Notes: generated by a model from the sequence alone, not told the origin. Counted from the first letter of the stretch, positions 1,845 through 61,253 are shown. The stretch: 64,000 nt of DNA from Alphaproteobacteria bacterium (GCA_965246895.1 OZ251993.1:838897-902896); one strand, 5' to 3'. Program-made: numbers and translations.

Positions 1845-4800
1845 ATGGCCATTTTTAAGACGATCATTGCTGGTGATAAAATTGAACGGCAGGCGCTTTT
1901 TGGAGCGCCTCCGGGCCATGACGCGCGTGCGTTAGCAGAACTGGCGCGGCAAGCGGGTAGCAAGGCCATCATCGCTGTTTTGCAGGACGATTTGCAGGCT
2001 GCAAGCCTTTCAGCTTACTTGAGCTTCTTTGCGCCCGGTATCGCGCAGTTGGAATTTCCAGCTTGGGACTGCTTGCCTTATGATCGCAGCTCGCCAAGTG
2101 CCGATATATTGGCAACGCGTGCCGCGACCTTATCGGCTTTGATCGAACCTCGTACGCAACCACTAATCGTTATCACGACGATCAATGCACTGACGCAGAA
2201 GCTGCCACCGCGCGCGGTATTCGCGACTAAACAGCTAGAGTTAAAAGCGGGCGCGACGATTGAGCGTGCAGCTTTGCAGCAGTTCTTGGCTGCGAATGGT
2301 TATCGCCGTGTAACTACGGTACGGGAGCCAGGCGATTACGCGCTGCGTGGCGATATCGCCGATCTCTATCCGCCAGATCAAGAGCAGCCCATTCGCATCG
2401 ATTTCTTCGATACGACAATCGAAAGCCTTAAAACATACGATGCACTGACGCAGCTGACCACAGGCTCTCTGCCAAGCTTGCAGCTGGATCGCACGGCGGA
2501 GCTGGTACTGGATGAGACAGCTGTGGCGCGGTTCCGCAATGGTTATCGCGAATTGTTCGGCGCGCAGTTGAAGGATGATCCGCTATATAGTGCTGTCAGC
2601 GAGGGCCGCGCCTATGCGGGCGTCGAGCATTGGCTGCCGCAATTTTACGATACGCTGGATACACTGTTCCATTATTTGCCAGACGCACCGCTGTGGCTGG
2701 GCTGGCAAATCCGCGAAGCAGCGACCTCGCGCTGGGCGCAGGTGGAAGATTTCTACGAAGCCCGCGCTAGCCTGTTACAAGCTATGCGGAAAGATCGGGC
2801 GAGCGCCTATAAGCCGCTGCCGCCAGCACAATTGTATCTGTCGCCCGACATGCTGGAAGCCGCGTTAAAGAAGCGCAGCGTGCTCGAGGTATCACCCTTT
2901 GCGCCGCCGGAAGGCGGGGCAGCACTTGACGCGGGCGGTAAGCGCGGTCGCGATTTCGCGCCGGAACGACAAGCTGACGTGCATAGCGTTTATAAAGCGG
3001 CGCTGAAATATATTGAGGTCGAGCAAAAGGTTGGGCGGCGCACAGTGCTGGCCGCTTACAGCCGCGGGAGTGCTGATCGCCTGCGGCATGTACTGGTCGA
3101 TGCCGGAGCGGGCCACAGTATTAAAGATGTTGCCGATGGCAATGCCGTCGACAAGCTGGATAAAAAAGATATCGGTCTTGCCATCCTGCCGCTAGAGCAG
3201 GGTTTCACTAGCGCTGAACTGACGGTGCTGACAGAGCAGGATCTACTGGGCGACAGGCTGGCCCGGCCCAAGCAGAAGAAGCGGCGCAGCGACGAGTTTG
3301 TGATCGACCTTGGCGCTTTGGAGGTCGGCGATCTCGTCGTCCATAACGAGCATGGGGTGGGGCGATTTGACGGCCTTGTCACCTTGGAGATCGGCGGCGG
3401 CCAGCACGATTGCCTGCGGCTGCTGTATCATAATAACGACCGCCTATTCCTGCCGGTCGAAAACCTCGACCTACTCTCGCGCTATGGCGGGGGCAGTGTG
3501 GACGAGACGGGCGAAAGCACATCGCAGCTGGATCGCTTGGGCGGTGCTGGATGGCAGGCGCGGCGTGCGCGGGTCAAAAAGCGGCTGAAGGATATGGCTG
3601 ATGCGCTACTGAAGATCGCCGCGCAGCGTGAGCTGCAGCCTGCGCCCGTGGCCGAAGTGCAACCCGGCCCGTACGACGAATTCTGCGCGCGCTTCCCCTA
3701 TGCGGAAACAGAAGATCAGGCCCGCGCCATTAGCCAGAGTCTTGACGATTTGACCCGCGGGCGGCCGATGGATCGCCTGGTGTGCGGCGATGTCGGCTTC
3801 GGCAAGACGGAGGTCGCGCTGCGAGCGGCATTCGTCGCGGCCAGCGCCGGGCTGCAGGTTGCAGTCGTGGTGCCAACGACGCTGCTCGCACGGCAGCACG
3901 CGCGCGGGTTTGCGACGAGGTTCCGCGGCTTCCCATTCAAGATCGCGCAGCTGTCACGGTTCGTGAATGCGGCGGATAGCAAGGTGGTGAAAGAAGGCCT
4001 TTCGGACGGCAGCGTCGATATTGTCATTGGCACGCATGCGCTGCTGGCTAGCGCGATCAAATTTCAGCGGCTAGGGCTCGTGATCGTGGATGAGGAGCAG
4101 CACTTCGGCGTCAAGCAGAAAGAAAAGCTGAAGGCGCTGGCCAGTTCGCATCGCAAAGCTGACAACGAGGGCGTGCATGTGCTGACGCTATCCGCAACGC
4201 CAATCCCGCGCACCATGCAGCTGGCGCTGACGGGCGTGCGTGAGCTGTCGCTGATCGCGACGCCGCCGGTGGATCGCCTTGCCGTGCGCACGACCGTACT
4301 GCCGTTTGACCCGCTGATCATCCGCGAGGCGCTGATGCGCGAACATTGGCGCGGCGGGCAGAGCTTCTGCGTCGCCCCGCATATCGAGGATCTACCGAAA
4401 CTGGCCGAGCAATTACGCGAGTTGGTGCCGGAGCTGAAGATCATCACCGCGCACGGGCAGCTGCCGCCGGGGCAGCTTGATGAGATCATGGGACAGTTCG
4501 ACGACGGGCAATACGATCTGCTGCTGGCGACCAATATCATCGAGAGCGGCCTCGATATTCCGCGGGCCAATACGATCATCATCCATCGCGCCGATCGGTT
4601 TGGGCTGGCGCAACTGTACCAGCTGCGCGGTCGTGTGGGCCGGGCCAAGGCACGCGGTTATGCCTATCTGACTTACCCGAGCGCGCAACTGCTGACGCCA
4701 AGTGCCGAGGCGCGGCTGAAGGTGATGGAGACGCTGGATACGCTAGGCGCCGGCTTCCAGCTGGCCAGCCACGACCTCGATATTCGCGGGGCGGGGAATT

Positions 4801-19731: not shown

Positions 19732-20004
19732 ATGAACAAGATGGAACTGGTAGCGGCTGTTGCCGACATCTCCAAGCTCTCGAAGACTGATGCAATGCGC
19801 GCTGTCGATGCAGTAATCGCCACAGTCATCAAGTCGATCAAAAAGAAGGAAGAAGTCCGCATTGTCGGGTTTGGCACCTTCAGCCAGAAGGAACGCAAGG
19901 CTGGGATCGGTCGCAACCCACGCACGGGCGAAGAAATCAAAATTGCGAAGAAAAAGCGCGCTGTATTCAAGGCCGGCAAGCAATTCAGCGACTCGATCAA
20001 CTAA
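19732..20004 (+). CDS. hupB: DNA-binding protein HU-beta
   Basis: 90 aa with MNKMELV...GFGTF...RNPRTGEEI HU/IHF signature. Conserved position after lon. Confidence 0.9.
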   Translation: MNKMELVAAVADISKLSKTDAMRAVDAVIATVIKSIKKKEEVRIVGFGTFSQKERKAGIGRNPRTGEEIKIAKKKRAVFKAGKQFSDSIN

Positions 20005-20031
20005 TAGCTGTTGCTTAAACGCTATTATCAG

Positions 20032-20062
20032 ACCCGGTGGCTGCGGCTGCCGGGTTTTTTGT
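20032..20062 (+). terminator. Rho-independent terminator after hupB
   Basis: ACCCGG...CCGGGT stem followed by TTTTTT. Confidence 0.65.
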
Positions 20063-20119
20063 TGGCGAATACACGCGCGATGGCTATAAAAACCGAAACA
20101 AAGCGTAATTATCATAAGG

Positions 20120-20884
20120 ATGCCAATGTTTGAAAAATTATTCAGCAAAGGCAGGTTTCTGGCAGGGACCTCTTTTTCAAAAATATATTTCGTAAAAACG
20201 GCTGATGGTCGTTACCGCCGTTTTTTTCATCGTAAATCGCAGGCCGACAGGGGCGTAATCAGGCAGATTTTTGTAAAAAAAGATTATTCACTTCGCAAAA
20301 TGGCGCGACGCGACGATCTGCTTAAAATCTATAAAGCTATTATAGAGAGTAAACGAACGCCCTTAATTATAGACGCTGGCTCAAATATCGGCGCCAGCGT
20401 TGTGTGGTTCGCCGATCAGTTCGAAGGTAGTCATATTGTTGCCTTTGAGCCTAGTGCAGAAAACGTAAAGTTATTAAAACGAAATACAGCCGATCTAGAT
20501 GTTGATATTCATGCAGCGGCATTGGGATCAACAGATGGTTTTGTCAGCCTTATTGATCCGGGCATGGGCGAATGGGGTTATCAAACGCAAGATAATAGCA
20601 AGGGCGAGTGCAAGCGGGAGTCGTTGTCGCGGCTTATCAAAGAAAAGATGGCTGAACAGTATGTGCCGTTTTTGATCAAAATCGACATCGAGGGCGGAGA
20701 AAGCGATTTGTTTGAAGCGCAGACAGAGTGGGTGGATCTGTTTCCTCTGCTGATCATCGAGCTACACGATTGGATGCTGCCCCGGCAGAAGACGTCCTAT
20801 ACTTTTCTAAAGCGTATCAGCCAATCGAACCGCGACTTCGTCTATAGCGGAGAAAATATATTCTCAGTAAAAAATGATGATTAA
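20120..20884 (+). CDS. FkbM-family SAM-dependent methyltransferase. The probable true start is the third codon Met at 20126.
   Basis: FkbM-like motifs IDAGSNIGAS, AFEPS, and IKIDIEGGE. The gene is AT-rich, and its stop abuts the 3' end of tRNA-Val. Confidence 0.7.
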   Translation: MPMFEKLFSKGRFLAGTSFSKIYFVKTADGRYRRFFHRKSQADRGVIRQIFVKKDYSLRKMARRDDLLKIYKAIIESKRTPLIIDAGSNIGASVVWFADQFEGSHIVAFEPSAENVKLLKRNTADLDVDIHAAALGSTDGFVSLIDPGMGEWGYQTQDNSKGECKRESLSRLIKEKMAEQYVPFLIKIDIEGGESDLFEAQTEWVDLFPLLIIELHDWMLPRQKTSYTFLKRISQSNRDFVYSGENIFSVKNDD

Positions 20885-20885
20885 A

Positions 20886-20960
20886 TGGTGGGCGGTGAGG
20901 GATTCGAACCCCCGACCAACTCGGTGTAAACGAGTTGCGCTACCGCTGCGCTAACCGCCC
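20886..20960 (-). tRNA. tRNA-Val (anticodon TAC) with encoded CCA
   Basis: Reverse complement reads GGGCGGTTAGCGCAGCGGTAGCGCAACTCGTTTACACCGAGTTGGTCGGGGGTTCGAATCCCTCACCGCCCACCA. Anticodon loop is TTTACAC. Confidence 0.9.
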
Positions 20961-21009
20961 ATACCTTGTCTATAATCTATGGATAGACCTATGGCAATCC
21001 CGATCCTAA

Positions 21010-21915
21010 TTAAGCCAGTTCACTATTTTTTGCTTGTTCCAATTGTCGCTGCCGCATGCGGAAGCGGGCTTTGGTCGCTTGATCGGTGTCTGCGTGACAA
21101 GCAGAACAGGAAACGCCAGGCTCGTAATGCTGGCTTTTTCGTGCTTCAGCATCAAGCGGGCGACCGCAGCTAAAGCAAGTACCGTAATCGCCTGGTGTAA
21201 GACCGTGGCCAACTGCAACGCGGCGGTCAAACACATAGCAGTCGCCTTGCCAACGGCTTTGCGTGGCTGGCACCGTTTCGAGATATTTGAGGATGCCGCC
21301 CTTGAGATGATAGACGGTTTCAAACCCCTCGGCGCGCATGAATGCGGAGGCTTTCTCGCACCGAATGCCGCCGGTACAAAACATGGCAACCTTTTTGTGC
21401 TTAGCTGGGTCAAGCGTGCCACGTACATAATCGGCAAAGCCCGTGAATTTATCGATGACTGGATTCAAAGCGCCCTGAAAAGTACCAACATCGACTTCAT
21501 AATCGTTGCGTATATCGAGCAGCACAACGTCTGGGTCAGCTAGCAGCGCATTCCAGTCTTGAGCCTCGATGTAAGTGCCGGCGAGGGTAGAAGGGTTGGC
21601 ATGTGGCTGACCGAAAGTGATGATTTCCCGCTTTAGGCGCAGCTTGAGCCGGTTAAAAGGTTTTGTCGGTGCCTCAGAAAATTTCACGTCTTCGCGCGGC
21701 AGGCCACAATGCGTTGCTAGCAGATCAAGCATAGCGTCGATAGCGCCGGGCGATCCGGCCAACGTGCCGTTAATGCCCTCTGAGGCAATCAGCAAACTGC
21801 CACACAGCTTCAATGCTTCGAACTGCGGCTTCAACGCAGCCTTTAGCTTAGCGGGGTCAGCAATCGGCGTGAAGCGATACAGTGCGGCAACGCGATAAGG
21901 TGAGAGTTCAGACAT
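21010..21915 (-). CDS. trhO: Rhodanese-domain tRNA uridine(34) hydroxylase TrhO (YceA/UPF0176 family)
   Basis: 301 aa with rhodanese active-site loop CTGGIRCEKA and a C-terminal Cys-rich segment. Confidence 0.75.
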   Translation of the reverse strand: MSELSPYRVAALYRFTPIADPAKLKAALKPQFEALKLCGSLLIASEGINGTLAGSPGAIDAMLDLLATHCGLPREDVKFSEAPTKPFNRLKLRLKREIITFGQPHANPSTLAGTYIEAQDWNALLADPDVVLLDIRNDYEVDVGTFQGALNPVIDKFTGFADYVRGTLDPAKHKKVAMFCTGGIRCEKASAFMRAEGFETVYHLKGGILKYLETVPATQSRWQGDCYVFDRRVAVGHGLTPGDYGTCFSCGRPLDAEARKSQHYEPGVSCSACHADTDQATKARFRMRQRQLEQAKNSELA

Positions 21916-22015
21916 GGGCGTAGTTTAGGGGAATGCGATTTTACTTTCCAGACAATACAGATGTAGGCAGGAAAACAGGCCTTCATAAAGCGCCGGGCGG
22001 CAAGCTGGTGAGATT

Positions 22016-23683
22016 ATGGAGATTGATCCACCACTTCCGTCCGACTTTAACCCTGAAAAGGTGGCGCGGTTCCGTGCGCTTTTTTTCGAAGAATCCGCTG
22101 AATTACTGCAGGAGGCTGAGCTATGCCTGCAGAATAGCGAGATTACGGGCGATGACGAGACGGTAGGCACGCTATTCCGTAGCATCCATTCGATCAAAAG
22201 CGGGGCGGCTGCTTTAGGCATGCACAGGGTTGTTGCCTATGCACATGTGTTTGAAGCGACTTTGGAAGAATTACGGCGTGGCAGCTATGCGCTCGATAAC
22301 CTGCGCCGGCATCTGTTCTTGCGCGGTTATGACATGATGGCAACTTTATTGGGCGCTGAATCTGCCAAACAAAGTTTGCCCGAAAATCTTGAAGCCGAGC
22401 TGACCAAAGCATTTGAGGTGTTAAGCGGGGCCGCCTCAGCCGTGCGATCGGATATGGCGCAGCGGGCACCGAACCATATGATAATGCCGCCTGTACAAAG
22501 CCAAACTCCGGTAATTCGGATCGAGATTGCGAAGATCGACCGCTTAGTCAATCTTGCGAGTGAGCTGACGATTCTTGAAGGCATGTTGCGGCAGCGAGCA
22601 GAAACTGTGCTGGCAACGGTTGGCAAAGTCGCTAGTGAAAATAATGGTTTGTTACACGGGCTTGACCAATTAGCGTTGCAACTCCGTGATTTACATGATG
22701 CTGCGATGGGCGCACGAGCACAGCCACTTGATAATGTATTTCAGCGGTTGCCTAGACTGGTACGAGAATTAGCCGAAAGCCTTGATAAGCGCGTGACACT
22801 AACCGTTTCCGGCGGGGAGGTTGAGGTCGATAAAACAATAATCGAGCAATTGATGGAGCCACTAACCCATATTCTACGGAATGCCATAGATCATGGAATT
22901 GAAACAGTGGGGCTCAGACAAAACGCAGGAAAGCCAACGGCAGGAACTATAAATTTACACGCACGCTGCATAGATAATCGGCTGCTGATTACCATTGTTG
23001 ACGATGGAAAAGGCTTAGATATGGCTGCGCTTCGCACTAAAGCTGCAGCGCTGGAATATCATGCAGAGACTGAAGCGGAACTGGCTGATCTAATCTTCCG
23101 ACCCGGGCTTTCAACCGCCGATACTGTTTCGGAAATTTCCGGCCGTGGGGTGGGTTTAGATGCTGTACGGCATAACCTGACCGGACTGGGCGGCAGCATT
23201 ACGGTAAGTTCAACCGTTGGGCAAGGAACGTGCTTTCATATTTCGTTACCGCTAACGCTAGCTGTGATGGATGGCATGGTCATCAGCATTGGCGGCGAGC
23301 TTTACGTATTGCCGCTAACAGATGTGCAGGAAGCATTGCGTGTTTCTCCCGCCGCGTTAATCAAGCGGGGAGAATTACCGCCGTTATTGCGTCACCATGA
23401 CCGTTATATCCCGTTGGTAGACGCCAGTATTTTACTTGATTGCGGTAAGTCTCCCCCAATAGCCAATGATCTGTTGATTGCCATAATCGGCACCGGTATC
23501 GCCAGTGCCGCACTTTGCATTGATCATATAGTGGGGCAACAGCAAATTGTTGTTCGCCCCGTGACGATGAGTGATGCGGAAACGCGCATCAGCGCGACGA
23601 TTTTAGGCGATGGGCGCGTGGCGTTAATCTTAACTGTAGCGCAGGTCATGGCAGCCCTACAGAAGCCGCGGATCGCAGCATGA
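22016..23683 (+). CDS. cheA: Chemotaxis histidine kinase CheA (short form; P1-P3-P4-P5, no P2 domain evident)
   Basis: HPt site ...SIHSIKSGAAALG, and HATPase boxes DDGKGLD and GRGVGLDAV. The C-terminus is CheW-like. Confidence 0.85.
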   Translation: MEIDPPLPSDFNPEKVARFRALFFEESAELLQEAELCLQNSEITGDDETVGTLFRSIHSIKSGAAALGMHRVVAYAHVFEATLEELRRGSYALDNLRRHLFLRGYDMMATLLGAESAKQSLPENLEAELTKAFEVLSGAASAVRSDMAQRAPNHMIMPPVQSQTPVIRIEIAKIDRLVNLASELTILEGMLRQRAETVLATVGKVASENNGLLHGLDQLALQLRDLHDAAMGARAQPLDNVFQRLPRLVRELAESLDKRVTLTVSGGEVEVDKTIIEQLMEPLTHILRNAIDHGIETVGLRQNAGKPTAGTINLHARCIDNRLLITIVDDGKGLDMAALRTKAAALEYHAETEAELADLIFRPGLSTADTVSEISGRGVGLDAVRHNLTGLGGSITVSSTVGQGTCFHISLPLTLAVMDGMVISIGGELYVLPLTDVQEALRVSPAALIKRGELPPLLRHHDRYIPLVDASILLDCGKSPPIANDLLIAIIGTGIASAALCIDHIVGQQQIVVRPVTMSDAETRISATILGDGRVALILTVAQVMAALQKPRIAA

Positions 23684-24180
23684 CAGACTCGGCCATGTGT
23701 CAGTTGCTGCTCATCGCTAATGATGCTGAATTATACGGGATCGAAGTGCCCCGGGTGCAAGAAATTCGTGCCTACCAATCCTTAACCCGGCTACCGCATG
23801 CGCCCGAGTATGTCCTTGGGGTTTTAAACGTTAGTGGCCAAATCTTGCCAGTCATCGATTTGCGATACCGACTCTGGGGTAGGCCCACTGTTGTTAGTGC
23901 CTGGCATGTAATCATTCTCGTTAAAAGCAGTGACATGCAGTGTGGAATTCTTGTCGATAATGCTAACGAAATTGTTGCTTTTATTAAGGCTGATATCGAA
24001 CCCATGCCGCTGCAAGCAAACAACGGTTGTTTGGCAGGGATCGTATATTTTGATGGATTAAATGGCGGCACTGCCGAGCCGCGGCCAATAGCGGTTCTAG
24101 ATATCGAAGCGATTGCCCATTTTAATTTGGGGTCGCCTGGCTTTGCGCCAGTCGAGCAAAAGGAGATAAGCTATGTTTAA
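23680..24180 (+). CDS. cheW: Chemotaxis coupling protein CheW
   Basis: 166 aa. CheW-domain consensus (LxFxLxxExYGIxVxxVxEI). Overlaps the cheA stop by 4 nt. Confidence 0.85.
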   Translation: MTDSAMCQLLLIANDAELYGIEVPRVQEIRAYQSLTRLPHAPEYVLGVLNVSGQILPVIDLRYRLWGRPTVVSAWHVIILVKSSDMQCGILVDNANEIVAFIKADIEPMPLQANNGCLAGIVYFDGLNGGTAEPRPIAVLDIEAIAHFNLGSPGFAPVEQKEISYV

Positions 24181-26500
24181 GCCCATCGAAATGTTGAAGG
24201 GCGGGCTCAAAATAGGCGCACGTCTGCGCCTTTATTTTGGCGGGTTCGTATTGGTTATTTTTTGTACGAATTTGTACATTTTCTTGACAGCACAAAACGT
24301 GGGTGCACTCGCGGGGTCGCTAACCGCTTATCGGATGGCTTCAATCGATAGCATCGGGGATTTGCGCAGTGCTAGCAGCATTATGCATAATCAATTGCTG
24401 GCATACCGCCTAGACCGGCAAGTATCGCGCGTTGAAACTTATCAGAAAGCAAAGGCGGCTGTGATCGAAAGCAGCGGGCAGCTTGACCGACTTAGCGCCT
24501 ACTGGAAACTTGATCAACAAGCTATCTGGTCAGACGCAAGCGCCGATGTGAAAGGCTTACTAAACGCAGGGCAGCGCTTGTTCGACGCAACGAGTAGTTT
24601 AGATGATGATCAATGGAAGCGGCAGTACAATGAAGATTTCTTGCCCCATCTATTCCAGCTAATTAATAAGATCGCCGGCGAGAAGCGGGAAATTATAAAC
24701 GAAGATGGTATTAGCGGATTTTTACAAAAAGATGTCCATGACGAAGCATTCGCAATCCATTCTGATATCGAAGACTTGCGGCAGGTCATCGCCGGGCTGC
24801 TAATTTTTAGCGTGTTATACGCATTAGGTGCCGCCACAAAGATTGGTCGTTCATTTGTACAGCCTTTGCGGCGAATGCAACAAGCCATGGTGGAAATTGC
24901 GCATGGCGATAGCGACGTGCAAATAACTGATCAAGGTCGCACAGACGAATTGGGAGATATGGCGCGTGCGTTAAGCGCAATCAGGGACGTTGGCATAGAA
25001 TCAGAGCGCATGCGACGCGCGCTCGATAGCTGTAGCGCGACGATCATGGTTGTCGATTTAAACAACAAAATAACATTCATAAATCAGGCCATGCTCTCGC
25101 TAATCGATAAGCATACTGACGAATTGTGGTGCGGTCGATTGGCTCAACGCCCTACTGAACTGTTGGGTCAACCTATCGACTCACTCTGTACTGAAATAAT
25201 GATGCAGCTTCGCATTCATGCCGGAGCGACAACCCTGCAGCGTGTGCGTTGCCAAACTGGGCTGCGCCTATTCGACTGCGTTTTGGCGCCGACTGTTGAT
25301 CGTAATAACAATCGCGTTTCAACTGTGATTGAATGGATTGACGTCACCTATCAATTGCAGGCCGAGCATGAGATTGCAGCGATCGTTACCGCAGCGGCGC
25401 AAGGCGATCTTTCGGCCCGATTAACGCTCGAGCAGAGGGAAGGCCTGATGTTGACCCTGGGTATAGGCATCAATCGATTACTGTCAATTGCCGCAACATT
25501 CATCGATGAATTGGGAGGTTTCTTTGCCGCTGTTGCCGCTGGTGATTTAACGGCACGCGTGACGGGCACTTATGAAGGGCGATTTGGGCGACTATCTGAT
25601 GATGCGAACAGATCTGCAGCACAGCTAGATAGCGTCATCGGGCGGATTATTGCAACGGCGCAGCAGGTCGCAGCCGCAAGCCGCGAGATTGCTGCGGGTT
25701 CGGGAGATTTATCGCACCGAACAGAGCAGCAAGCAGCCAGCTTAGAAGAAGCCGCAGCTTCTATGGAAGAGATGGCAGCAACCGTTCGACACAACTCGGA
25801 TAATGCGCAGTTGGCAAATACGATTGCCCAAAAAACGCGGCAAGCAGCAGAGCGCGGCAGCTTAGTTGCCGTGGAAGCCGTAACAGCGATGGAACAAATT
25901 GAAATTTCGGCGCGGCAAATTATAGATATCATCAGCGTCATGGATGAAATCACTTTTCAAACCAATCTGCTGGCGCTAAATGCAGCAGTGGAAGCGGCGC
26001 GGGCAGGCGAAGTAGGACGTGGATTTGCCGTTGTGGCAACCGAAGTGCGGGCGCTATCGCTACGGTCGGCGGCGGCGGCCAAAGATATCAAGAGTTTGAT
26101 TAGGGAAAGTCATGCTCAGATTAGTACTGGTGTTGAATCCGTCAATCGCGCGGGCGCAGTTTTAAGCGAGATTGTCGCCTTAAGCACGGAAGTTGCAGGT
26201 TTGATTGCAGAAATTGCCTCAGCCAGCGGCGAGCAGGCAACCGGCCTTGATCTAATTAATCACTCAGTCGCGCGAATAGATGACATGACACAAGGTAATT
26301 CAGCATTAGTTGAAGAAAGCGCGACGTCTGCACAAGCGCTTGATGAACAATCTGTGCAAATGCTGGAGATGACAGGATTTTTCCATTTTAGCGATGTCGC
26401 CCAACCTTCGCCTACAAAACCGCGTTTGATGCCGGTTCCAAAGCCTGTTGAAGCCGTTGCCGATTATGCAAGTTTGACAGATGATCACTGGACGTTCTGA
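24173..26500 (+). CDS. Methyl-accepting chemotaxis protein with periplasmic helical sensor, HAMP and PAS domains
   Basis: 775 aa with two transmembrane segments and a PAS-like block. Signalling domain has ...EQQAASLEEAAASMEEMAATV... and LLALNAAVEAARAGEVGRGFAVVATEVRALS. Confidence 0.9.
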   Translation: MFKPIEMLKGGLKIGARLRLYFGGFVLVIFCTNLYIFLTAQNVGALAGSLTAYRMASIDSIGDLRSASSIMHNQLLAYRLDRQVSRVETYQKAKAAVIESSGQLDRLSAYWKLDQQAIWSDASADVKGLLNAGQRLFDATSSLDDDQWKRQYNEDFLPHLFQLINKIAGEKREIINEDGISGFLQKDVHDEAFAIHSDIEDLRQVIAGLLIFSVLYALGAATKIGRSFVQPLRRMQQAMVEIAHGDSDVQITDQGRTDELGDMARALSAIRDVGIESERMRRALDSCSATIMVVDLNNKITFINQAMLSLIDKHTDELWCGRLAQRPTELLGQPIDSLCTEIMMQLRIHAGATTLQRVRCQTGLRLFDCVLAPTVDRNNNRVSTVIEWIDVTYQLQAEHEIAAIVTAAAQGDLSARLTLEQREGLMLTLGIGINRLLSIAATFIDELGGFFAAVAAGDLTARVTGTYEGRFGRLSDDANRSAAQLDSVIGRIIATAQQVAAASREIAAGSGDLSHRTEQQAASLEEAAASMEEMAATVRHNSDNAQLANTIAQKTRQAAERGSLVAVEAVTAMEQIEISARQIIDIISVMDEITFQTNLLALNAAVEAARAGEVGRGFAVVATEVRALSLRSAAAAKDIKSLIRESHAQISTGVESVNRAGAVLSEIVALSTEVAGLIAEIASASGEQATGLDLINHSVARIDDMTQGNSALVEESATSAQALDEQSVQMLEMTGFFHFSDVAQPSPTKPRLMPVPKPVEAVADYASLTDDHWTF

Positions 26501-27308
26501 GCGCATAAAGCGGGAGTTTAGTTTTACCCAATCTGATTTTTTAGCGTTGAGTGCCATTGCCACGGCAATCACCGGCATCCATCTGCCAACTTTTAAAAGC
26601 GACATGATTTATGGCCGGCTGGCGCACCGATTGCGCGCTTTGCATTTGCCGAATTTCACAGTCTATCGCGATTACATCGCGCAGCCGGAAAATGCTGGCG
26701 AGTTGGTTGAATTGGTGAATGCCTTGACGACGCCTGTATCGCATTTTTGGCGAGAGCCACACCATTTTGAGCACTTGGCTGCCGTGACATTGCCTTGGAT
26801 TGTTGCTGAAGGGCGGCAACCGCGGCTGTGGTCGGCCGGGTGCGCTGCCGGACAGGAAGCCTATATGCTGGCCATGGTTTTAGAACGTGCCAATCTAGCA
26901 GGGCGCATTCTTGCAACCGACGTCAATACTAACGCGTTGAGGATTGCCAAGGCGGGACAATACGATGCCCAAGAGCTAGCACGGCTGCCCCTCAGCTGGC
27001 GTAAGGAGCATTGGCAGCAGAGCGGTAGGCCAGGACGTTGGCAAGCAAACCCAGCCTTACAGGAAAAAATATCATTCAGGCCGCTTAACCTGCAAGCTGC
27101 CTGGCCGCTGCAGCAGCGGTTTGACGCTATTTTCTGCCGTAATGTAATGATCTATTTCGACACACCTACAAAACAGCAGTTGCTGAAGCGGTTCGCCGCA
27201 CTGCTTAATCCCGGAGGTTGGCTCTATATTGGGCATGCCGAAAATATCTTGCCGCTTAATACTTGTTTCAAATCAGTAGGGCGCACAATTTATCGGCTCG
27301 ATAATTAA
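26481..27308 (+). CDS. cheR: Chemotaxis protein methyltransferase CheR
   Basis: WSAGCAAGQEAYMLAMVL SAM-binding motif, with CheR N-terminal helical domain. Confidence 0.85.
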   Translation: MITGRSERIKREFSFTQSDFLALSAIATAITGIHLPTFKSDMIYGRLAHRLRALHLPNFTVYRDYIAQPENAGELVELVNALTTPVSHFWREPHHFEHLAAVTLPWIVAEGRQPRLWSAGCAAGQEAYMLAMVLERANLAGRILATDVNTNALRIAKAGQYDAQELARLPLSWRKEHWQQSGRPGRWQANPALQEKISFRPLNLQAAWPLQQRFDAIFCRNVMIYFDTPTKQQLLKRFAALLNPGGWLYIGHAENILPLNTCFKSVGRTIYRLDN

Positions 27309-27352
27309 ATGCGATAGTTGATTTATATGGCTTTTTAAGCTCAAATCGGGGC

Positions 27353-28474
27353 ATGGAAGCCCAACGTCATAGACAGCAATCGGATGACCGCGTCCACGCG
27401 AGCGCCAAGCAAGCGTGGGAGCGTCTGCAGGAATTGAAGCTGGCGGCGACGCCGGAAAATTATGTACTATTTTTCGCTTATTATAACGGGCATGAAAAGG
27501 CGCTGATTAACGGAATTGATGCGGTTTTAGCCAATCCACAAAATAATACTGAGCTAAAATTAGAAAATGCGCTGTTGGATGTTTATGACCGCTTTGTAAA
27601 TACCGCGACTCAGCAGGCTTTTCTGAGTACTGCGACGAGCCAGTTCGACGATGAAATGAAGCAGATCATGGGTGTAATTGAAGCTGCCCGTAAGGGCGCA
27701 GATGATTACAGCACCGCCCTTGATACCTTTAACGAGAAACTAGAGCCTGAAATTTCGGTTGAGCAAATCCGCTATATGGTGACGCAAATGGCGCTAGAGA
27801 CGCGCACTGTTGCCGAACAGAATGAAAAGCTGCATGAACAACTGCATAGCTCAAGCAGTCAAATCAATAGTTTGAGAGAAAATCTTGAGGAAATACGCAA
27901 GGAATCGCTGCGCGATCCTTTAACAGGTATTGGCAATCGCAAAGCATTCGTGGCCGATTTATTGCGCATCACAACAGAGACGATGGAGCATGGCGATGTG
28001 CTATCGCTGCTCATGATTGATGTCGACCATTTTAAGAAGTTTAACGACCTGCATGGGCATCTTGTTGGTGATCAGGTGTTAAAGCTGGTTGCGCATACGC
28101 TGCGGGAAAATATCAAGGGTCGGGATACGGCTACGCGCTGGGGCGGGGAAGAATTCGCGATCTTGTTACCGCAAACCAAGCTGGATGATGCGGTGCGTGT
28201 GGGCGATCACCTGCGGAAGCTGGTGGCTTCTAAAAAGATCATTCGCAAACCGCAAAACGAGGATTTGGGCGCGATCACGCTATCAATGGGTGCCACGCAA
28301 TATGTTTACGGCGAGGATACAGCTTTGATGGTCGAACGTGCCGATCAGGCGCTTTATCGTGCTAAACAAGAGGGGCGCAATCGAGTTGTCGCTGCGACGC
28401 AGCCTATGGCGGCACCAGGCACATCTCACCCAGAACCGACACCGGAAGTCGCTTCGATTACAATCGCCGACTAA
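27353..28474 (+). CDS. GGDEF-domain diguanylate cyclase with N-terminal coiled-coil region (no REC domain)
   Basis: Active-site RWGGEEF and DHFKKFNDLHGH. The N-terminal ~200 aa are helical/coiled-coil with no D-D-K receiver pattern. Confidence 0.85.
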   Translation: MEAQRHRQQSDDRVHASAKQAWERLQELKLAATPENYVLFFAYYNGHEKALINGIDAVLANPQNNTELKLENALLDVYDRFVNTATQQAFLSTATSQFDDEMKQIMGVIEAARKGADDYSTALDTFNEKLEPEISVEQIRYMVTQMALETRTVAEQNEKLHEQLHSSSSQINSLRENLEEIRKESLRDPLTGIGNRKAFVADLLRITTETMEHGDVLSLLMIDVDHFKKFNDLHGHLVGDQVLKLVAHTLRENIKGRDTATRWGGEEFAILLPQTKLDDAVRVGDHLRKLVASKKIIRKPQNEDLGAITLSMGATQYVYGEDTALMVERADQALYRAKQEGRNRVVAATQPMAAPGTSHPEPTPEVASITIAD

Positions 28475-28513: not shown

Positions 28514-30874
28514 ATGCTAGAACAGGGCATGAACGCGCCAGAACAGCATATCGTGACTCAAATATCTGAAAACGAGCCAAATTCCATTATCGATGCGCCG
28601 ACAAATTTTCCGCCGGCCTTACAGATGATGTTTGACAGCCTGAACAATCCGCAACGGCAGGCGGTGCTGGCGTTGGATGGGCCAGTGCTGATGCTGGCCG
28701 GGGCGGGTACCGGCAAAACCAAAGCCCTAACGGCGCGGCTGGCGCATATTCTGCTGGGGCATCATGCACATACGCAGGAAGTGTTGGCCGTTACATTCAC
28801 CAATAAAGCTGCCAAGGAGATGCGGCACCGCGTCGAGCAGATTTTAGGCCGCTCGACGGCGGGCATGTGGCTCGGCACCTTCCACTCGATCTCGGTGCGT
28901 ATCCTGCGGCGCTATGCCGAGCGGGTGGGGTTGAAGCCGAGCTTCACCATTCTTGATACGGATGACCAGCTGCGCCTGATCAAGCAACTGGTTGAAGCCA
29001 TGAACCTTGACGAGAAGCGAAACCCGCCACGGATGTTGGCGGCGATCATCGACGGCTACAAAAATAAAGGTTGGCGGCCCGACCAGGTGCCGGCGCATGA
29101 AGCGGGCGCGATCGCCGACGGCAAGATGCTGGAGATTTACCGGCAGTATCAGGCGCGTCTTATCACGCTGAATGCTTGTGATTTTGGCGATCTGCTGTTG
29201 CATGTGCTGACGATTTTGCAGCAGCACGAGGATGCACGGGAAGCTTTGCAGCGGCAGTTCAAATATATCCTGGTCGACGAATATCAGGATACTAACGTTT
29301 CACAATATCTGTGGCTGCGGCTGCTGGCGCAACAGCATAAAAATATCTGCTGCGTTGGTGATGACGACCAGTCGATCTTCAGTTGGCGCGGCGCAGAGGT
29401 CGGCAATATCCTTCGGTTTGAAAAAGATTTCCCTGGCGCGGTTGTGATCCGGTTAGAGCAGAACTACCGCTCGACCGGGCATATTTTGGGCGCGGCTGGG
29501 GGCGTGATCGCGCAGAATAAGAACCGCCTTGGCAAAACGTTATGGACGGCGGCTGAAATGGGCGAGCAGGTACGCGTGCGCTCACTCTGGGGCGGGGAAG
29601 ACGAGGCGCGTTGGGTTGCGGAAGAAATCGAGACGCTGCAACGCCGCAAGGTTGATCTGTCAGACGTAGCGATTTTGGTGCGTGCCGGGTTCCAAACGCG
29701 CGAGTTTGAAGAACGCTTTATCAGCCTCGGCATTCCCTATCGCGTGCTGGCCGGTGCACGATTCTATGAACGGCAGGAAATCCGCGACGCGTTGGCCTAT
29801 TTCCGCATCATCATGGTGCGCGAAGACGATCTGGCCTTCGAGCGCATCATCAATGTGCCAAAGCGCGGAATCGGCGCGACGAGCCTGCAGAAGCTGCAAC
29901 AGTTGGCACGGGCGCGGCAACAGCCATTGCTGCAGATTGCCGAAGATGTTGTGCAAAGCGATGAGTTTACGGCCCGCACCCGTACGCCTCTGCGGGAGCT
30001 GACAGGTGCGCTCGCGCGCTGGCGGGCTGCTTTGGAAACTGAGAGTCATGTTGAACTGGCGCGACGTGTGCTGGATGAGAGCGGCTATACCGGCATGTGG
30101 CAGGCTGATGGTTCGCCCGAAGCACAGGGGCGGCTGGAAAACCTGAAAGAACTCGTCAGCGCTATGGCTGAGTTCGAGAGCATGGAAGGCTTTCTGGAGC
30201 ACGTCAGCCTGGTGATGGAGCAGGCGGAGGATGAGACAGTGGCCAAGGTCACGCTGATGACGCTGCATGCTTCCAAAGGCTTAGAGTTCGAACATGTGTT
30301 TCTGCCTGGCTGGGAAGAAGAAATTTTCCCGAGCCGCCGCACGTTGGAAGAAAGTGGTGCGAGCGGGTTGGAGGAAGAACGGCGGTTAGCGTACGTAGGA
30401 CTGACGCGTGCACGCGTTGCGGCCTATGTCAGCTATGTGTCGAGCCGCCGGGTTTACGGCAATACGGTCTATTCAATGCCATCGCGGTTCGTTAAAGAAA
30501 TGCCGCCAGAGCACGTGCAGGAGGAGATGGACCCCGGTCTTTACAGCCAACCGATGCAAAGCGGCCAGTTCGGCGGTGCCTCGCCTTATCTGGGGCCGGG
30601 CGGCACGATCAACCGCACGAACCGTTGGGGACGGGAAAAATACAGTACTGAGGATAAGCCAGCCGCGAAGCTGCTGGAAGGCGTTGCACGGGAGCTGGTG
30701 GTAGAGACCGAGGAGGGCCGCACGATCTATACGCCTGGCGCCCGTGTGTTTCATGATAAGTTCGGCTATGGCACGGTGGCGAGCGCCCGCGGCGATCTGC
30801 TGGATGTGAAATTCGATCATAGCGGCGTGAAGAAAATTATTGCCAGTTTTGTGAAGCCGCATGAGCAGGGGTGA
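28514..30874 (+). CDS. uvrD: UvrD/Rep-family ATP-dependent DNA helicase (DNA helicase II)
   Basis: 786 aa with Walker A AGAGTGKT and UvrD-family motifs throughout. Confidence 0.85.
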   Translation: MLEQGMNAPEQHIVTQISENEPNSIIDAPTNFPPALQMMFDSLNNPQRQAVLALDGPVLMLAGAGTGKTKALTARLAHILLGHHAHTQEVLAVTFTNKAAKEMRHRVEQILGRSTAGMWLGTFHSISVRILRRYAERVGLKPSFTILDTDDQLRLIKQLVEAMNLDEKRNPPRMLAAIIDGYKNKGWRPDQVPAHEAGAIADGKMLEIYRQYQARLITLNACDFGDLLLHVLTILQQHEDAREALQRQFKYILVDEYQDTNVSQYLWLRLLAQQHKNICCVGDDDQSIFSWRGAEVGNILRFEKDFPGAVVIRLEQNYRSTGHILGAAGGVIAQNKNRLGKTLWTAAEMGEQVRVRSLWGGEDEARWVAEEIETLQRRKVDLSDVAILVRAGFQTREFEERFISLGIPYRVLAGARFYERQEIRDALAYFRIIMVREDDLAFERIINVPKRGIGATSLQKLQQLARARQQPLLQIAEDVVQSDEFTARTRTPLRELTGALARWRAALETESHVELARRVLDESGYTGMWQADGSPEAQGRLENLKELVSAMAEFESMEGFLEHVSLVMEQAEDETVAKVTLMTLHASKGLEFEHVFLPGWEEEIFPSRRTLEESGASGLEEERRLAYVGLTRARVAAYVSYVSSRRVYGNTVYSMPSRFVKEMPPEHVQEEMDPGLYSQPMQSGQFGGASPYLGPGGTINRTNRWGREKYSTEDKPAAKLLEGVARELVVETEEGRTIYTPGARVFHDKFGYGTVASARGDLLDVKFDHSGVKKIIASFVKPHEQG

Positions 30875-42315: not shown

Positions 42316-43881
42316 TTAGCTCGGTTGTGTGCCTGCCTGGCGGCTTGACGAAAGAGACTGTGGATAACTGGGGCATGGCGAAGGTTGCCATCGCTCGATC
42401 ACACGGCAATCGGCCACTTTCTTTTGAAAAGTTGCCGACATTCTCTGGATCTTATTGCGTACGCCTTCAGCAATGCCCTCATGATCATCGTGACTGAGGC
42501 GATACACGATCACGGCTAAAGCTTTATCGAATTTCGGATGAAACGAATCGAATGATTTTACGCGCGTTGCAACTTCGTTTCTGACGCCTTCCGAAGGATC
42601 TCTAGATAACAGATCAAGCGTTTCGATCATGTCTGTCACTCGTATTTGATCAGCTTGTTTATGGAGAGCCTGCATGCCTGATAAAGCATAGTCGGGTACA
42701 ACCATGCGAACCTTAGTTTCAGGATGAAAACTGAGCTGAACGACAGCGTCGAGTGCCTGTGCGTATTTGTCAGCATGCATGTGATCGAAGAAGCGATTGC
42801 CGAGCATCATTAATCCGTCGAGACGCCGGCTGGGATCAGGATGTGTAAGGAGTGTTTTCGCGTAGGCATATAGACGTTCATTTTGAGCTTGGGTGAGCGG
42901 CGGCACAGCAAGTTGGCCATCTTGACGCGGGCCCTCAACGGGAAGTAACGGCATGATTGAACGCGTTTCACAATCATCGATGGCGGCATCGATCAGCTTC
43001 GGATAAAATTCATCAAAATTCAGCCGGTCTTTAAGCGATGATATTTCAATCGAAGTATCGTCGTTGCTGTCAGCAATAACGAAACCTTCGTCGCCGAAAT
43101 GCATCTGGAACTTTTCCTGCGTTCTCGGCAATAACAATACGAACAGGCTGCCGGTTTTGTTGTAATCGTCAAACGCAGATCGGCTATCAGTGTCGGCTGT
43201 GCACCATTGCGTTTGGCGACCGTAAAAACGTGCAGCTGCAATTCGGTTGATGCGCAGAAGTCGATAATCTTCATTTTTACCAATGATAACAGCCGCCGGG
43301 TCTTTGCCAGCCAATAAAGCTATTTCTTCCGGATTGCCGGCTATGAACGACGTATCAACGACTTTTGGCTTGAACATGTTACGGAACGCAGTCGGAAAAT
43401 CCGCTTCCTCGCAGTAGGAATTAAAACGCGGTGAATTGTGGATTCGTTGTTTGTACGGCTGTAAGCCTTTGAAAATTTCAGCAGGTTTCAGGGCAATTAG
43501 CTGTCCGGTGTAAGATCCAAGTGGAGCATATAGATCGAATGGAATATAAGCGCTGTGCAGCGCGTCCACAGCGGCAAGATAAAGCGAAATTTTATCTGTA
43601 TCTTCGTAGAATAATCGATGGCGTTCGGCGGGCGATGATTGTTTTACCAAAGTGCAAAGATAGGGAATGAATTTACCAGCTGGCGTTAAATCGATTTGCA
43701 AAATCATTTCAATCGAACGTTGTACATCGAGTTCACTGTCATAAGCTCTGTAATCGCCGATAAAAGGATTTTCACGTATAAAATCGCCTGCATCGCTCAA
43801 CAAGAAGGTTAGTTGGCGCTGTTTGGCCTGTCGCATTGGTGGCAAATTATAGGGATTTTCATCCATGCCCGGTTCTATCAC
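42316..43881 (-). CDS. Hypothetical 521-aa protein inserted between ftsA and ftsZ. It is AT-rich, the C-terminal third has HEAT/PBS-like repeat character, and the ORF-track start is a GTG.
   Basis: Long uninterrupted ORF, AT-richer than flanking dcw genes, with no recognised catalytic motifs. C-terminal repeats resemble DPSxxVRxxAxxxL HEAT-like units. Confidence 0.55.
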   Translation of the reverse strand: MIEPGMDENPYNLPPMRQAKQRQLTFLLSDAGDFIRENPFIGDYRAYDSELDVQRSIEMILQIDLTPAGKFIPYLCTLVKQSSPAERHRLFYEDTDKISLYLAAVDALHSAYIPFDLYAPLGSYTGQLIALKPAEIFKGLQPYKQRIHNSPRFNSYCEEADFPTAFRNMFKPKVVDTSFIAGNPEEIALLAGKDPAAVIIGKNEDYRLLRINRIAAARFYGRQTQWCTADTDSRSAFDDYNKTGSLFVLLLPRTQEKFQMHFGDEGFVIADSNDDTSIEISSLKDRLNFDEFYPKLIDAAIDDCETRSIMPLLPVEGPRQDGQLAVPPLTQAQNERLYAYAKTLLTHPDPSRRLDGLMMLGNRFFDHMHADKYAQALDAVVQLSFHPETKVRMVVPDYALSGMQALHKQADQIRVTDMIETLDLLSRDPSEGVRNEVATRVKSFDSFHPKFDKALAVIVYRLSHDDHEGIAEGVRNKIQRMSATFQKKVADCRVIERWQPSPCPSYPQSLSSSRQAGTQPS

Positions 43882-59097: not shown

Positions 59098-59346
59098 ATT
59101 AGAAGAGCTGTATGTGGCTTTTCGACATAGATTTAACGTAATCTGTTCGCTCAATGTTCTTGCTCAGCCTGTTAATATTTCGGCTTCAAACTCATTTACC
59201 ATGTTTGTCGACGAGGGCCGCGAAAGGGCCTTAATGCTGTCGCGAATAAATCACATCGCAAGTAAATCCTGCACACTTGTATTGGTGAAATCAGGCTACA
59301 TTAGGAGCAGACGATGACGCGCACGCGCAACTGGAGGAACTGGATT

Positions 59347-60030
59347 ATGAAAGCTTCGATTAAGACGGCTTTTGCTGCTGGGCTGATGGTGATGACAGGC
59401 CAAGCCGCACATGCGCAAAGCTTCGGTTCTGTGACGCGCGGGGCGGAGCAGCCAAGCCCAGAGCAACAGCAACGCCAACAACAGCAGCGCCAAGATCGCC
59501 GGAGTGGTTGGTTTACGACCGATGGGAATAGTCGTGCAGGCCAGCGTTTTGATAATAATGTTGATCAAAACTCACGTAACTGGAGCCAGCCCCGTCAAAG
59601 TCCAAATAGTTATGACCAGTATCAGAATTTCGATCCCAATGAAGTTTATCTACCAACGCAGGTTTCACCGCGACCAGTAAGCTGCCAAGTCAATACCTAT
59701 GGCGTTCGCAATCCAGGATACATGGCGGCTGTTACTGTTGCAGATGCAAATTCTTGCCGCCCAATCGTGATCAGTAGCGGCGCGCGTGACTTTATCCAAA
59801 TCAATGATTATGGCTATCAAGGTCGCGGCGTACATCAATATCAAATCAGCCTGCGTGGCGGCCAAGTAACCGCCGTAACACTCGATGGTCGCGTGCAACT
59901 GCCGCCGCAGTTCGGCGAAGCGCTATTAGATCGTCCGCTTGGTGGGGTGCAACTTGCTCGTACCTCAATGGATGGGCCACAGACGCCACAAGTGAAGTCA
60001 ATTCGCCAATGGATTGGCTTGGGATATTAA
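59347..60030 (+). CDS. Secreted hypothetical protein with Gln/Arg-rich low-complexity segment. The ORF-track start at 59314 is over-extended; the start is taken at MKASIK...
   Basis: Signal peptide MKASIKTAFAAGLMVMTGQAAHA, a QQQRQQQQRQ tract, and no catalytic motifs. Confidence 0.5.
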   Translation: MKASIKTAFAAGLMVMTGQAAHAQSFGSVTRGAEQPSPEQQQRQQQQRQDRRSGWFTTDGNSRAGQRFDNNVDQNSRNWSQPRQSPNSYDQYQNFDPNEVYLPTQVSPRPVSCQVNTYGVRNPGYMAAVTVADANSCRPIVISSGARDFIQINDYGYQGRGVHQYQISLRGGQVTAVTLDGRVQLPPQFGEALLDRPLGGVQLARTSMDGPQTPQVKSIRQWIGLGY

Positions 60031-60461: not shown

Positions 60462-61253
60462 CTAGTAACGCTGGAAGGGCGCTGTAGCAGGCGTGCGGGC
60501 CGAGGTCGCGGGCACTTTATAGATAGCGGGCGCGGGAGCAGGGATGCCATGGGCATACTGGTTTACTACCTGTTGAATGGTGCCCTCGCAAGCCGCCGAC
60601 AAGCGCTGGTATTCGGCAGGATTATCATGCGCCTGCTGACGATAACCGCGCTCCTTGTTCATCTCGCCCGCCGCGATTTCCAGCTGGTCATTGATAAAAT
60701 TCTGCATGCGGCTGCGGGCTTCTTCCGGATCATTAGCCCGCACCATGCCCAGCTTGCGGATCGCGGCCTCGGCAAATTGCTGGAGGATGGGCTGATATTC
60801 CGCCAGAAGCTTGCGGTCGATCGCCAGATGGCCTTCTTCATGAGCTAACACCTCGGCATGGCCACAAGTGTTGCGGGGCAATTCGCGGGCAACATAGATT
60901 GAGTTATGCTGAAACCCGACATCGATCCGCGCCTCAGCCGGGCGGGCGCAAACCCGGCCATCGGTGCCGACGACCATATTCGTCTGCAGCATGATGCTGA
61001 AATTGAGTTCGCCAATCGCAAAGCCGACGGGCTGATCTTTATGAAATACGGCGGAGGCTTGGGCGGCGACAATATCCTTCAAGCGGGGCAAAGGCTGTTC
61101 AAAATTATAAGCAGGAGCTTCAAAAAAGCTGGTGATCTTGACAACTGGATCCGGCAAGGGCGGGCATTCGCTCACGTTACCTAGTGTTTGCGCAACAGCA
61201 GGCAAAGTCAGGCTCGCGAGCATAAAGGCAAGAAATAGGTAATGAATTCGCAA
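60462..61253 (-). CDS. Secreted putative Zn-metallopeptidase-like protein (HExxH: HEEGH; DUF922-like)
   Basis: N-terminal signal peptide and LAHEEGHLAI motif. Confidence 0.55.
   Translation of the reverse strand: MRIHYLFLAFMLASLTLPAVAQTLGNVSECPPLPDPVVKITSFFEAPAYNFEQPLPRLKDIVAAQASAVFHKDQPVGFAIGELNFSIMLQTNMVVGTDGRVCARPAEARIDVGFQHNSIYVARELPRNTCGHAEVLAHEEGHLAIDRKLLAEYQPILQQFAEAAIRKLGMVRANDPEEARSRMQNFINDQLEIAAGEMNKERGYRQQAHDNPAEYQRLSAACEGTIQQVVNQYAHGIPAPAPAIYKVPATSARTPATAPFQRY

Follow-up and report, generated by a model that had tools for sequence, protein, structure and literature searches.

Gene content of the locus

The stretch of DNA examined here comprises 64,000 nucleotides from an Alphaproteobacteria bacterium (GCA_965246895.1 OZ251993.1:838897-902896). 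It is referred to throughout as the window, and all coordinates are counted from its first letter. Between positions 22,016 and 28,474 it carries four genes of a chemosensory core, namely cheA, cheW, a gene for a methyl-accepting chemotaxis protein (MCP) and cheR, followed by a gene for a GGDEF-domain diguanylate cyclase. All five open reading frames (ORFs) lie on the plus strand and were found exactly at the coordinates given in a preliminary description made from the sequence alone. The cheA gene (22016..23683) encodes a protein of 555 amino acids (aa) with Pfam Hpt, H-kinase_dim, HATPase_c and CheW domains and an NCBIfam CheA match of 2.5e-99, while cheW (23680..24180) encodes 166 aa with a Pfam CheW match of 1.8e-27. 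The mcp gene (24173..26500) encodes 775 aa with Pfam HAMP, PAS, HAMP_2 and MCPsignal domains, and cheR (26481..27308) encodes 275 aa matching Pfam CheR_N and CheR (5.5e-51). Successive che genes are joined by stop/start overlaps of 4 nt (cheA/cheW), 8 nt (cheW/mcp) and 20 nt (mcp/cheR). A spacer of 44 nt (27309..27352, plus strand) then leads to the cyclase gene (27353..28474), whose product has 373 aa and a Pfam GGDEF match of 6.7e-42.

The window was searched for receiver (REC) domains and for the remaining Che proteins by three routes. A tblastn search with E. coli CheY gave no match in the window. A receiver hidden Markov model (HMM), built from five receivers, was run without speed filters over the six reading frames of the 64 kb, and its best E-value among all 621 stop-to-stop ORFs of 50 aa or longer was 1.3; as a control, the same model recovered the receiver of a hybrid kinase at a related locus (L002), which was outside the training set, at 2.8e-26. 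The third route used phmmer with queries from L086, a complete alphaproteobacterial che cluster. Its CheY, CheB, CheD and CheX/STAS proteins had no match in the 64-kb window, and its CheA, CheW and CheR, serving as controls, were matched at 1e-109, 4e-23 and 2e-59, respectively. The observation of an incomplete che operon followed by a REC-less cyclase, with no receiver within 64 kb, is therefore confirmed.

The other parts of the preliminary description agreed equally well with the data. Its four translationally coupled che genes correspond to the overlaps above, and its CheA with HPt, dimerisation, HATPase and CheW-like domains and no P2 is borne out by Pfam and by the short linker of ~25 residues between P1 and P3. 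Pfam and hydropathy support the PAS- and HAMP-containing MCP with a helical periplasmic sensor. Likewise, Pfam, the family alignment and an AlphaFold2 model uphold the account of a GGDEF protein 44 bp further on, with an intact GGEEF motif, a coiled-coil N-terminus and no receiver. What the description had made of these parts, that the cyclase serves as the output of the Che operon, is taken up below.

The cyclase and its family

The GGDEF domain of the cyclase spans residues 186-344 and covers positions 2-161 of the 161 in the Pfam profile. Its GGEEF motif lies at residues 264-268 (28142-28156), where G264, G265, E266, E267 and F268 are all invariant in the family alignment (A1), so that the protein has the predicted active site of a diguanylate cyclase, GG(D/E)EF within a full GGDEF domain. 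The inhibitory-site position, five residues before GGDEF, reads KGRD (28115-28126; K255, D258) and not RxxD. As K255 is invariant across the cyclase family, this is a family-wide variant of the RxxD site, and product inhibition of the cyclase may differ from that of PleD and WspR.

The preceding part of the protein is less familiar. Residues 1-185 have no Pfam domain match. The N-terminal region (residues 1-182; 27353-27898) consists of a helical domain and a coiled-coil stalk, the first ~120 residues forming a distinct small helical domain with a conserved PTPxNY. In the family alignment the conserved motif extends to L-x-P-T-P-x-N-Y and is followed by a long helix into the GGDEF domain, with P34 and L123 invariant. 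AlphaFold2 models residues 1-182 as all helix, with no strands, at a mean predicted local distance difference test score (pLDDT) of 78.5, rising above 90 at residues ~10-80. No significant fold match to this model was found in the PDB. The idea of a cryptic receiver in the N-terminus was rejected, since the HMM scan gave no match there, the model is helical throughout and no PDB fold was matched. Furthermore, none of the Asp and His residues among the first 185 is invariant in the family alignment, and for this reason the N-terminal domain appears to be without a phosphoryl-accepting residue.

The cyclase aligns along 86-97% of its length, N-terminus included, with more than 100 proteins at 38-56% identity, and the named homologues are mostly from Alphaproteobacteria. 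A profile of the N-terminal domain matched 1,976 representatives of 50%-identity clusters at E<=1e-10, and nearly all of the best 150 matches are proteins of ~350 aa with the domain at their N-terminus. Judged by sequence, the cyclase is an ordinary member of a large family of ~350-aa proteins that share one architecture regardless of their neighbours, and its N-terminal domain belongs to what appears to be a large, uncharacterised family of sensor or regulatory domains. Caulobacter DgcB (CC1850) is not under the control of cell-cycle phosphorylation and is antagonised by PdeA (PMC3764195); its possible orthology to the cyclase of the window is a lead only.

Genomic position of the cyclase in relatives

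The surroundings of the cyclase were compared across 27 related loci, defined as loci matching its N-terminal domain, with flanks of up to 10 kb and far shorter where a contig ended. At least some 25 more distant family loci came from a scan of genome contigs with the cyclase alignment; the patterns of that scan lay in the generic GGDEF core, and it missed the source species and its closest relatives. At 24 of the 27 related loci there is neither a che gene nor a receiver gene within the examined flanks. Che genes flank the cyclase at two of the loci listed. The first, L001, has 91% nucleotide identity to the window and comes from a low-coverage contig labelled 2x. The second, L004, is the closest other relative (UvrD identity 80%), and here an mcp orthologue (46% identity) is followed after a 27-nt gap by the cyclase, without cheR. 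The L004 contig opens with the start of mcp, which is overlapped there by an ORF before it.

The gene next to the cyclase on the right is far more constant. In the window uvrD (28514..30874, plus strand; identified by Pfam) follows directly, and it is the conserved right-hand neighbour of the cyclase in relatives, the linkage being seen in L002, L004, L005, L006, L007, L011 and a contig of a further relative, P0004. In L005 (UvrD identity 77%) the order is Lon-HU-cyclase-UvrD-(small ORF)-PrmA-PepP-LigA-RecN-BamD, with the cyclase directly after HU and no che genes. L002 (68%) has Lon-HU-REC-hybrid kinase (opposite strand)-cyclase, then two genes without Pfam match and UvrD-PrmA-PepP-LigA. On the P0004 contig the cyclase is preceded by a single-domain REC and, on the opposite strand, by a REC-PP2C protein, an RsbW-like kinase, a STAS protein and a large hybrid kinase; it is followed by a small opposite-strand ORF, UvrD, another small ORF and PrmA-PepP-LigA-RecN. 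No HU gene was seen upstream of the cyclase on this contig. In L006, L007 and L011 (UvrD identity 58-64%) the cyclase lies beside or near uvrD.

The interval between HU and the cyclase is thus what varies: it is empty in L005 (2204-2486), holds a REC and a hybrid kinase in L002 (7618-9936), and in the window (20005-27352) contains an FkbM-family methyltransferase, trhO and the che cassette. Because relatives without che genes keep the cyclase in the same position, these gene orders indicate that it is an old resident next to uvrD and that the HU-cyclase interval is a variable slot. The N-terminal domain of the cyclase shows the same indifference to che genes, its identity being 43% in L004, 39% in L005 and 36% in L002, in step with the UvrD identities of 80%, 77% and 68%. 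From the comparison of loci, the pairing of che genes and cyclase looks like a matter of neighbourhood rather than a new signalling circuit. Signalling modules of different kinds do recur upstream of the cyclase across the relatives.

Two points of the preliminary description meet a divided result here. It had singled out the conservation of the five-gene order in relatives: the order cheA-cheW-mcp-cheR does recur, on a 3.1-kb contig (L087), but che genes stand beside the cyclase only in L001 and L004 of the 27 listed loci, and in L004 cheR is missing from that place. It had also named, as grounds for abandoning its interpretation, that the cyclase be unrelated to the che genes and transcribed independently of them. 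At the evolutionary level the first is largely what was found; independent transcription did not receive the same support, as no terminator is predicted in the gap.

A weak consensus scan of the 44-nt gap was negative for terminator-like sites on both strands and for sigma70-like sites on the plus strand. The one promoter-like match nearby is on the minus strand, inside the end of cheR. This is weak evidence, since the counts of promoter and terminator matches were no higher than the shuffled expectation and the consensus may not fit the host. Co-transcription of cheR and the cyclase is still possible, because no terminator is predicted in the gap. Read-through, if it occurs, would couple expression but not signalling.

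These observations bear directly on the proposal that the Che core controls the adjacent REC-less cyclase, either by docking of the cyclase's N-terminal helical domain at the receptor-CheW-CheA array or through a stand-alone phosphorylated CheY from another locus binding it in trans, as a split version of WspR or PleD logic. The proposal draws on the shared strand and the small gaps in two diverged lineages (44 nt in the window and 27 nt in L004), on the lack of a predicted terminator and on the relatives that put other phosphorelay modules, a single-domain REC and a hybrid kinase, beside the same cyclase. CheY3 of Shewanella oneidensis has, moreover, been reported to interact with REC-less cyclases (PMC7666153). 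We nevertheless consider it unlikely. At 24 of the 27 loci the cyclase and its N-terminal domain are kept although the examined flanks contain no che or receiver gene, the N-terminal identity tracks phylogenetic distance and not association with che genes, and a single insertion passed on vertically accounts for che genes and cyclase standing together in the window, L001 and L004. The absence of a conserved Asp or His from the N-terminal domain, and of any receiver from the 64 kb, also argues against such control.

CheA, CheW and CheR

CheA comprises the P1 (HPt), P3, P4 and P5 domains, and P5 stops at residue 547 of the 555. From the end of the HPt bundle near residue 140 to the start of the dimerisation domain (P3) at residue 166 there are only ~25 residues, too few for P2, and this domain is absent. 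As read from the translation, the phosphorylated histidine H58 (HSIKS; 22187-22189) is intact, and so are the N box (22868-22897), G1 box (23000-23014) and G2 box (23141-23155) of P4. Neither Pfam nor the receiver HMM identified a receiver domain in CheA.

The nearest CheA homologues outside the species are alphaproteobacterial chemotaxis kinases of 650-770 aa, with 44-46% identity in P3-P5 only. The second-ranked of these distant homologues (P0125, 45% identity), the sole one with its genomic context examined, sits in an mcp-STAS-cheY-cheA-cheW-cheR-cheB-cheD cluster. By this comparison the che cassette seems to have evolved fast, and by reduction, from a complete cluster. At its other end, the start codon of cheR falls inside the codons for the MCP tail (26481-26500), and the same overlap is present in L087 (~3030-3050).

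The receptor

The MCP is composed, in order, of a first transmembrane segment, a helical periplasmic domain of ~160 aa, a second transmembrane segment, HAMP, PAS, a di-HAMP, the signalling domain, a Pro-rich linker and a DHWTF tail. Hydropathy places the transmembrane segments at residues ~20-42 and ~204-224. Residues 450-737 align without gaps to Tsr 228-515, which assigns the signalling domain to the 36-heptad (36H) class, and the methylation motifs EQQAASLEE (25724-25750) and LVEESA (26306-26323) are conserved with Tsr.

The best NCBIfam match of the receptor is Aer2 (3.7e-114, under the equivalog cut-off), and the structure 3VOL of Pseudomonas aeruginosa Aer2 (PaAer2) matches its PAS and di-HAMP segment at 3.3e-25. 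Within the PAS domain, I-beta Trp388 (25334-25336) is conserved in the orthologue alignment, and Cys339 (25187-25189) aligns with the Aer2 heme ligand, E-eta His234. The cysteine is kept in all four orthologues of the clade (window, L001, L087 and L004), whereas more distant Aer2-like homologues have His. Heme coordination by the E-eta His is counted among the defining features of the PAS-heme domains of Aer2 (PMC10107281). Because Cys339 stands in place of this ligand, the receptor is best termed Aer2-like and not a demonstrated Aer2; its PAS domain might bind heme through the Cys, use the Cys as a redox sensor or be free of heme. A metagenome contig scan with an alignment of the clade-specific receptor sensor gave matches at the HAMP level only, and no orthologues.

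The C-terminal tail of the receptor, DHWTF (26483-26497), is DDWTF in L087. Its aromatic spacing, W-x-F, is one residue shorter than that of the xWxxF pentapeptide, and distant MCP homologues end in DWKEF, EWEEF or DWQEF. The GWEEF tail of McpB has been reported to bind CheR2 (PMC6739360), and by analogy DHWTF is plausibly a tether for CheR. In L004, the end of the MCP orthologue (2300-2356) has no aromatic tail and there is no adjacent cheR, which suggests that tail and cheR were lost together in that lineage.

On one view, the receptor, CheW and CheR would be an extra input to the main chemotaxis array, and the P2-less CheA a subsidiary kinase that needs another CheA. The kinase is indeed short and without P2, its nearest homologues are alphaproteobacterial chemotaxis kinases, and the receptor is of the 36H class, with alphaproteobacterial MCPs, such as one from Skermanella, among its best distant matches. 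There is also a precedent in CheA3 and CheA4 of Rhodobacter sphaeroides, which work only together. Even so, this arrangement strikes us as rather improbable, as the CheA of the window has P1, P3, P4 and P5 and by its domain content should need no partner for autophosphorylation.

Maintenance of the che cassette

The ratio of nonsynonymous to synonymous substitution rates (dN/dS) against L001 is 0.10 for cheA, 0.16 for cheW, 0.055 for mcp, 0.088 for cheR and 0.037 for the cyclase gene, compared with 0.115, 0.109 and 0.141 for the neighbouring housekeeping genes of TrhO, PepP and BirA. All five genes are under purifying selection. On the L087 contig, the end of cheA (63% identity), cheW (53%), mcp (68%) and the start of cheR stand in the same order as in the window. 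In L001, cheA, the cyclase gene, uvrD, birA, prmA and pepP are each split into two ORFs; as dN/dS stays low, these splits are probably indels of a low-coverage assembly and not real pseudogenes. Pseudogene decay was rejected on the dN/dS values.

Base composition was examined as a sign of horizontal transfer of the che genes and proved uninformative. Their GC content at third codon positions (GC3) is 0.49-0.54, as in BirA, PrmA, PepP and RecN (0.48-0.54), while the highly expressed Lon, HU and UvrD reach 0.67.

Decay would make the cassette a remnant of a complete Che2-like cluster that no longer signals, having lost cheY, cheD, cheB and P2. All of these are absent here, the identity of 44-46% to the closest CheA homologues outside the species points to fast evolution, the His ligand of Aer2 is replaced, and L004 has also lost cheR from the position before the cyclase. 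Such a remnant seems to us highly improbable in view of the four intact che ORFs with their overlapping junctions and of che dN/dS values (0.055-0.16) that are on par with those of TrhO, PepP and BirA. CheA retains its catalytic His as well as intact N, G1 and G2 boxes, the methylation motifs of the receptor match those of Tsr, and L087 keeps the order cheA-cheW-mcp-cheR. The replacing Cys is itself conserved in four of four orthologues.

Comparison with known systems

The closest counterpart of the che cassette, by gene order and domain content, appears to be the middle of the Aer2/McpB Che2 (F7-type) clusters of Pseudomonas aeruginosa and Vibrio. As in those clusters, the receptor of the window is of the 36H length class, has a PAS domain between HAMP domains, homologous to that of PaAer2 and with the I-beta Trp kept, and ends in an aromatic tail after a flexible linker, with cheR immediately downstream. 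The P. aeruginosa cluster, whose order is cheY2-cheA2-cheW2-aer2-cheR2-cheD-cheB2, matches in its middle the cheA-cheW-receptor-cheR of the window. However, the Che2 clusters have cheY, cheD and cheB, none of which is present here in the cluster or the 64 kb, and the CheA of the window is without P2. PaAer2 is soluble, whereas the receptor here is membrane-anchored with a periplasmic domain; the E-eta His of Aer2 is a Cys and its xWxxF tail is DHWTF. The hosts differ as well, being gammaproteobacterial in the one case and a relative of Alphaproteobacteria in the other. Several homologues bear the label 'Bdellovibrionales bacterium', the order in which NCBI places Micavibrio, and this hints that the host of the window may be a Micavibrio-like alphaproteobacterium.

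Alphaproteobacterial clusters of the type mcp-cheX(STAS)-cheY-cheA-cheW-cheR-cheB-cheD, represented by L086, appear to contain the closest homologues of the CheA outside the species, and their CheW and CheR are homologous to those of the window. Their CheA proteins, though, are 650-770 aa long, with the 44-46% identity limited to P3-P5, they possess the cheY, cheB, cheD and cheX that the window does not, and their receptor gene is not placed between cheW and cheR. Stages 3-5 of the F7 systems in beta- and gammaproteobacteria offer a different likeness, that of a Che core relying on a CheY that lies outside its own cluster or has newly joined it (PMC7184735). They also show a receptor with a periplasmic domain and transmembrane segments taking the place of an Aer2-type one (PMC7184735). 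They differ from the present locus in keeping cheB and cheR together and in controlling the flagellar motor.

The resemblance to the Wsp system of Pseudomonas, on which the preliminary description had leaned, consists of Che-like genes and a diguanylate cyclase side by side on the same strand. In Wsp, the cyclase WspR is a REC-GGDEF fusion and WspE a CheA-REC hybrid, the parts of CheB and CheR are taken by WspF and WspC, and there are two CheW-like proteins. Here, by contrast, neither the cyclase nor CheA has a receiver, there is no CheB in the 64 kb and a single CheW, although CheR is present. The cyclase is, moreover, a resident syntenic gene that does not co-occur with che genes across relatives. 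On these comparisons the locus is not Wsp-like.

For the cyclase itself, the closest known counterparts are SiaD and other stalk-GGDEF cyclases whose activation runs through an N-terminal coiled coil; the shared feature is a predicted helical N-terminal stalk that leads into a GGDEF domain with an active site. In NCBIfam the best match is SiaD, but at 169 bits against a cut-off of 290, and covering the end of the stalk and the GGDEF domain only, it does not qualify as an equivalog. The partner-switching set of P0004 (REC-PP2C, RsbW-like kinase and STAS protein), which stands beside the orthologous cyclase, adds to the likeness. The distinct domain of the first ~120 residues, with its PTPxNY, sets the cyclase of the window apart from SiaD, and no SiaC-like partner is found in the window.

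Interpretation of the locus

The locus would be best understood as two units that are adjacent by descent, and not as one operon with a dedicated output. We consider it probable that the che genes form a functional sensory core, served by a CheY and a CheB from other sites in the genome, and that the cyclase is a resident neighbour, at most co-transcribed with them. The membrane-anchored, Aer2-like 36H receptor would assemble with CheW and the P2-less CheA, and CheR would methylate the receptor, probably while tethered by the DHWTF tail. Once autophosphorylated on H58, CheA would serve as phosphoryl donor for at least one CheY-type regulator encoded outside the window, and probably for a CheB as well. 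P2 is dispensable for phosphotransfer in vivo in E. coli CheA mutants, and direct transfer from P1 would fit its loss here.

The simplest acceptors would be the CheY and CheB of another che cluster in the same genome, from which we infer an output in which the che module feeds a shared pool of regulators, for example that of a flagellar chemotaxis pathway. F7 systems that lost their own cheY similarly use a cheY/cheZ pair located elsewhere (PMC7184735). The cyclase, for its part, would be regulated through its own N-terminal helical domain and would already have stood beside uvrD when the che cassette entered the variable HU-cyclase interval. If the two units are linked at all, the link most likely goes no further than transcriptional read-through of the 44-bp gap.

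The preliminary description is in this way partly supported. It was right about what the locus contains, but its view that the cyclase delivers the output of the operon in a Wsp-like manner, by non-canonical coupling, is not supported in the face of syntenic orthologues without che genes, a family that keeps to one architecture and an N-terminal domain with no acceptor Asp or His. If the locus is as we suggest, it holds an ordinary satellite chemosensory core that borrows its regulators beside an unrelated cyclase, and it cautions against taking the adjacency of genes for a pathway.

Several points weigh against this account. That cheY and cheB lie elsewhere is an assumption, the searches having covered the 64-kb window. 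In two diverged lineages, cassette and cyclase share a strand with little DNA between them (44 nt in the window, 27 nt in L004), and no terminator is predicted in between. A CheR without a nearby CheB or CheD is unusual for an adapting system. Finally, three relatives hold signalling genes of different kinds in the slot upstream of the cyclase, which could mean that the cyclase is a common output of interchangeable sensory modules.

This last idea can be taken further. The receiver-less cyclase might stand under the receptor-CheW-CheA array, through contact with its N-terminal helical domain or an orphan single-domain CheY in trans, and the HU-cyclase interval would then be a docking slot for interchangeable modules, be it a Che core, a hybrid kinase with a REC or a partner-switching set; sensing by a Cys-ligated heme or a redox-active Cys in the receptor's PAS domain, in place of a His-ligated heme, would be a related possibility. 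We hold such an arrangement to be doubtful, with little more than a tenth part of our expectation resting on it, but if true it would amount to a new wiring of a Che array to cyclic di-GMP without a receiver domain. Whichever the wiring, the analysis has yielded useful side results in the uncharacterised N-terminal domain of the cyclase, a lineage of Aer2-like receptors with a His-to-Cys replacement, and the apparent joint loss of receptor tail and cheR.

Other features of the window

The left side of the variable interval (19732..21915) begins with the HU gene (19732-20004, plus strand) and ends with trhO, a rhodanese gene (21010-21915, minus strand), both identified by Pfam and NCBIfam. Between them lies the gene for the FkbM-family methyltransferase (20120-20884, plus strand), with a GC content of 0.44 and a GC3 of 0.46 against ~0.55 GC for the region. 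The gene has no homologue in the examined parts of L002, L004 and L005 and may be a recent acquisition.

Core chromosome genes fill the remainder of the window, among them mfd, glnA, tig, clpP, clpX, lon, hupB, uvrD and birA, as well as prmA, pepP, ligA, recN, bamD, lpxC, ftsZ and mraW. Sizeable ORFs without a Pfam match at E<=1e-8 are located at 42316-43881, 59314-60030, 60462-61253 and 61340-62761. Among these Pfam-less ORFs is one of 521 aa that lies between ftsZ and a block of cell-wall and division genes, at the position expected of ftsA.

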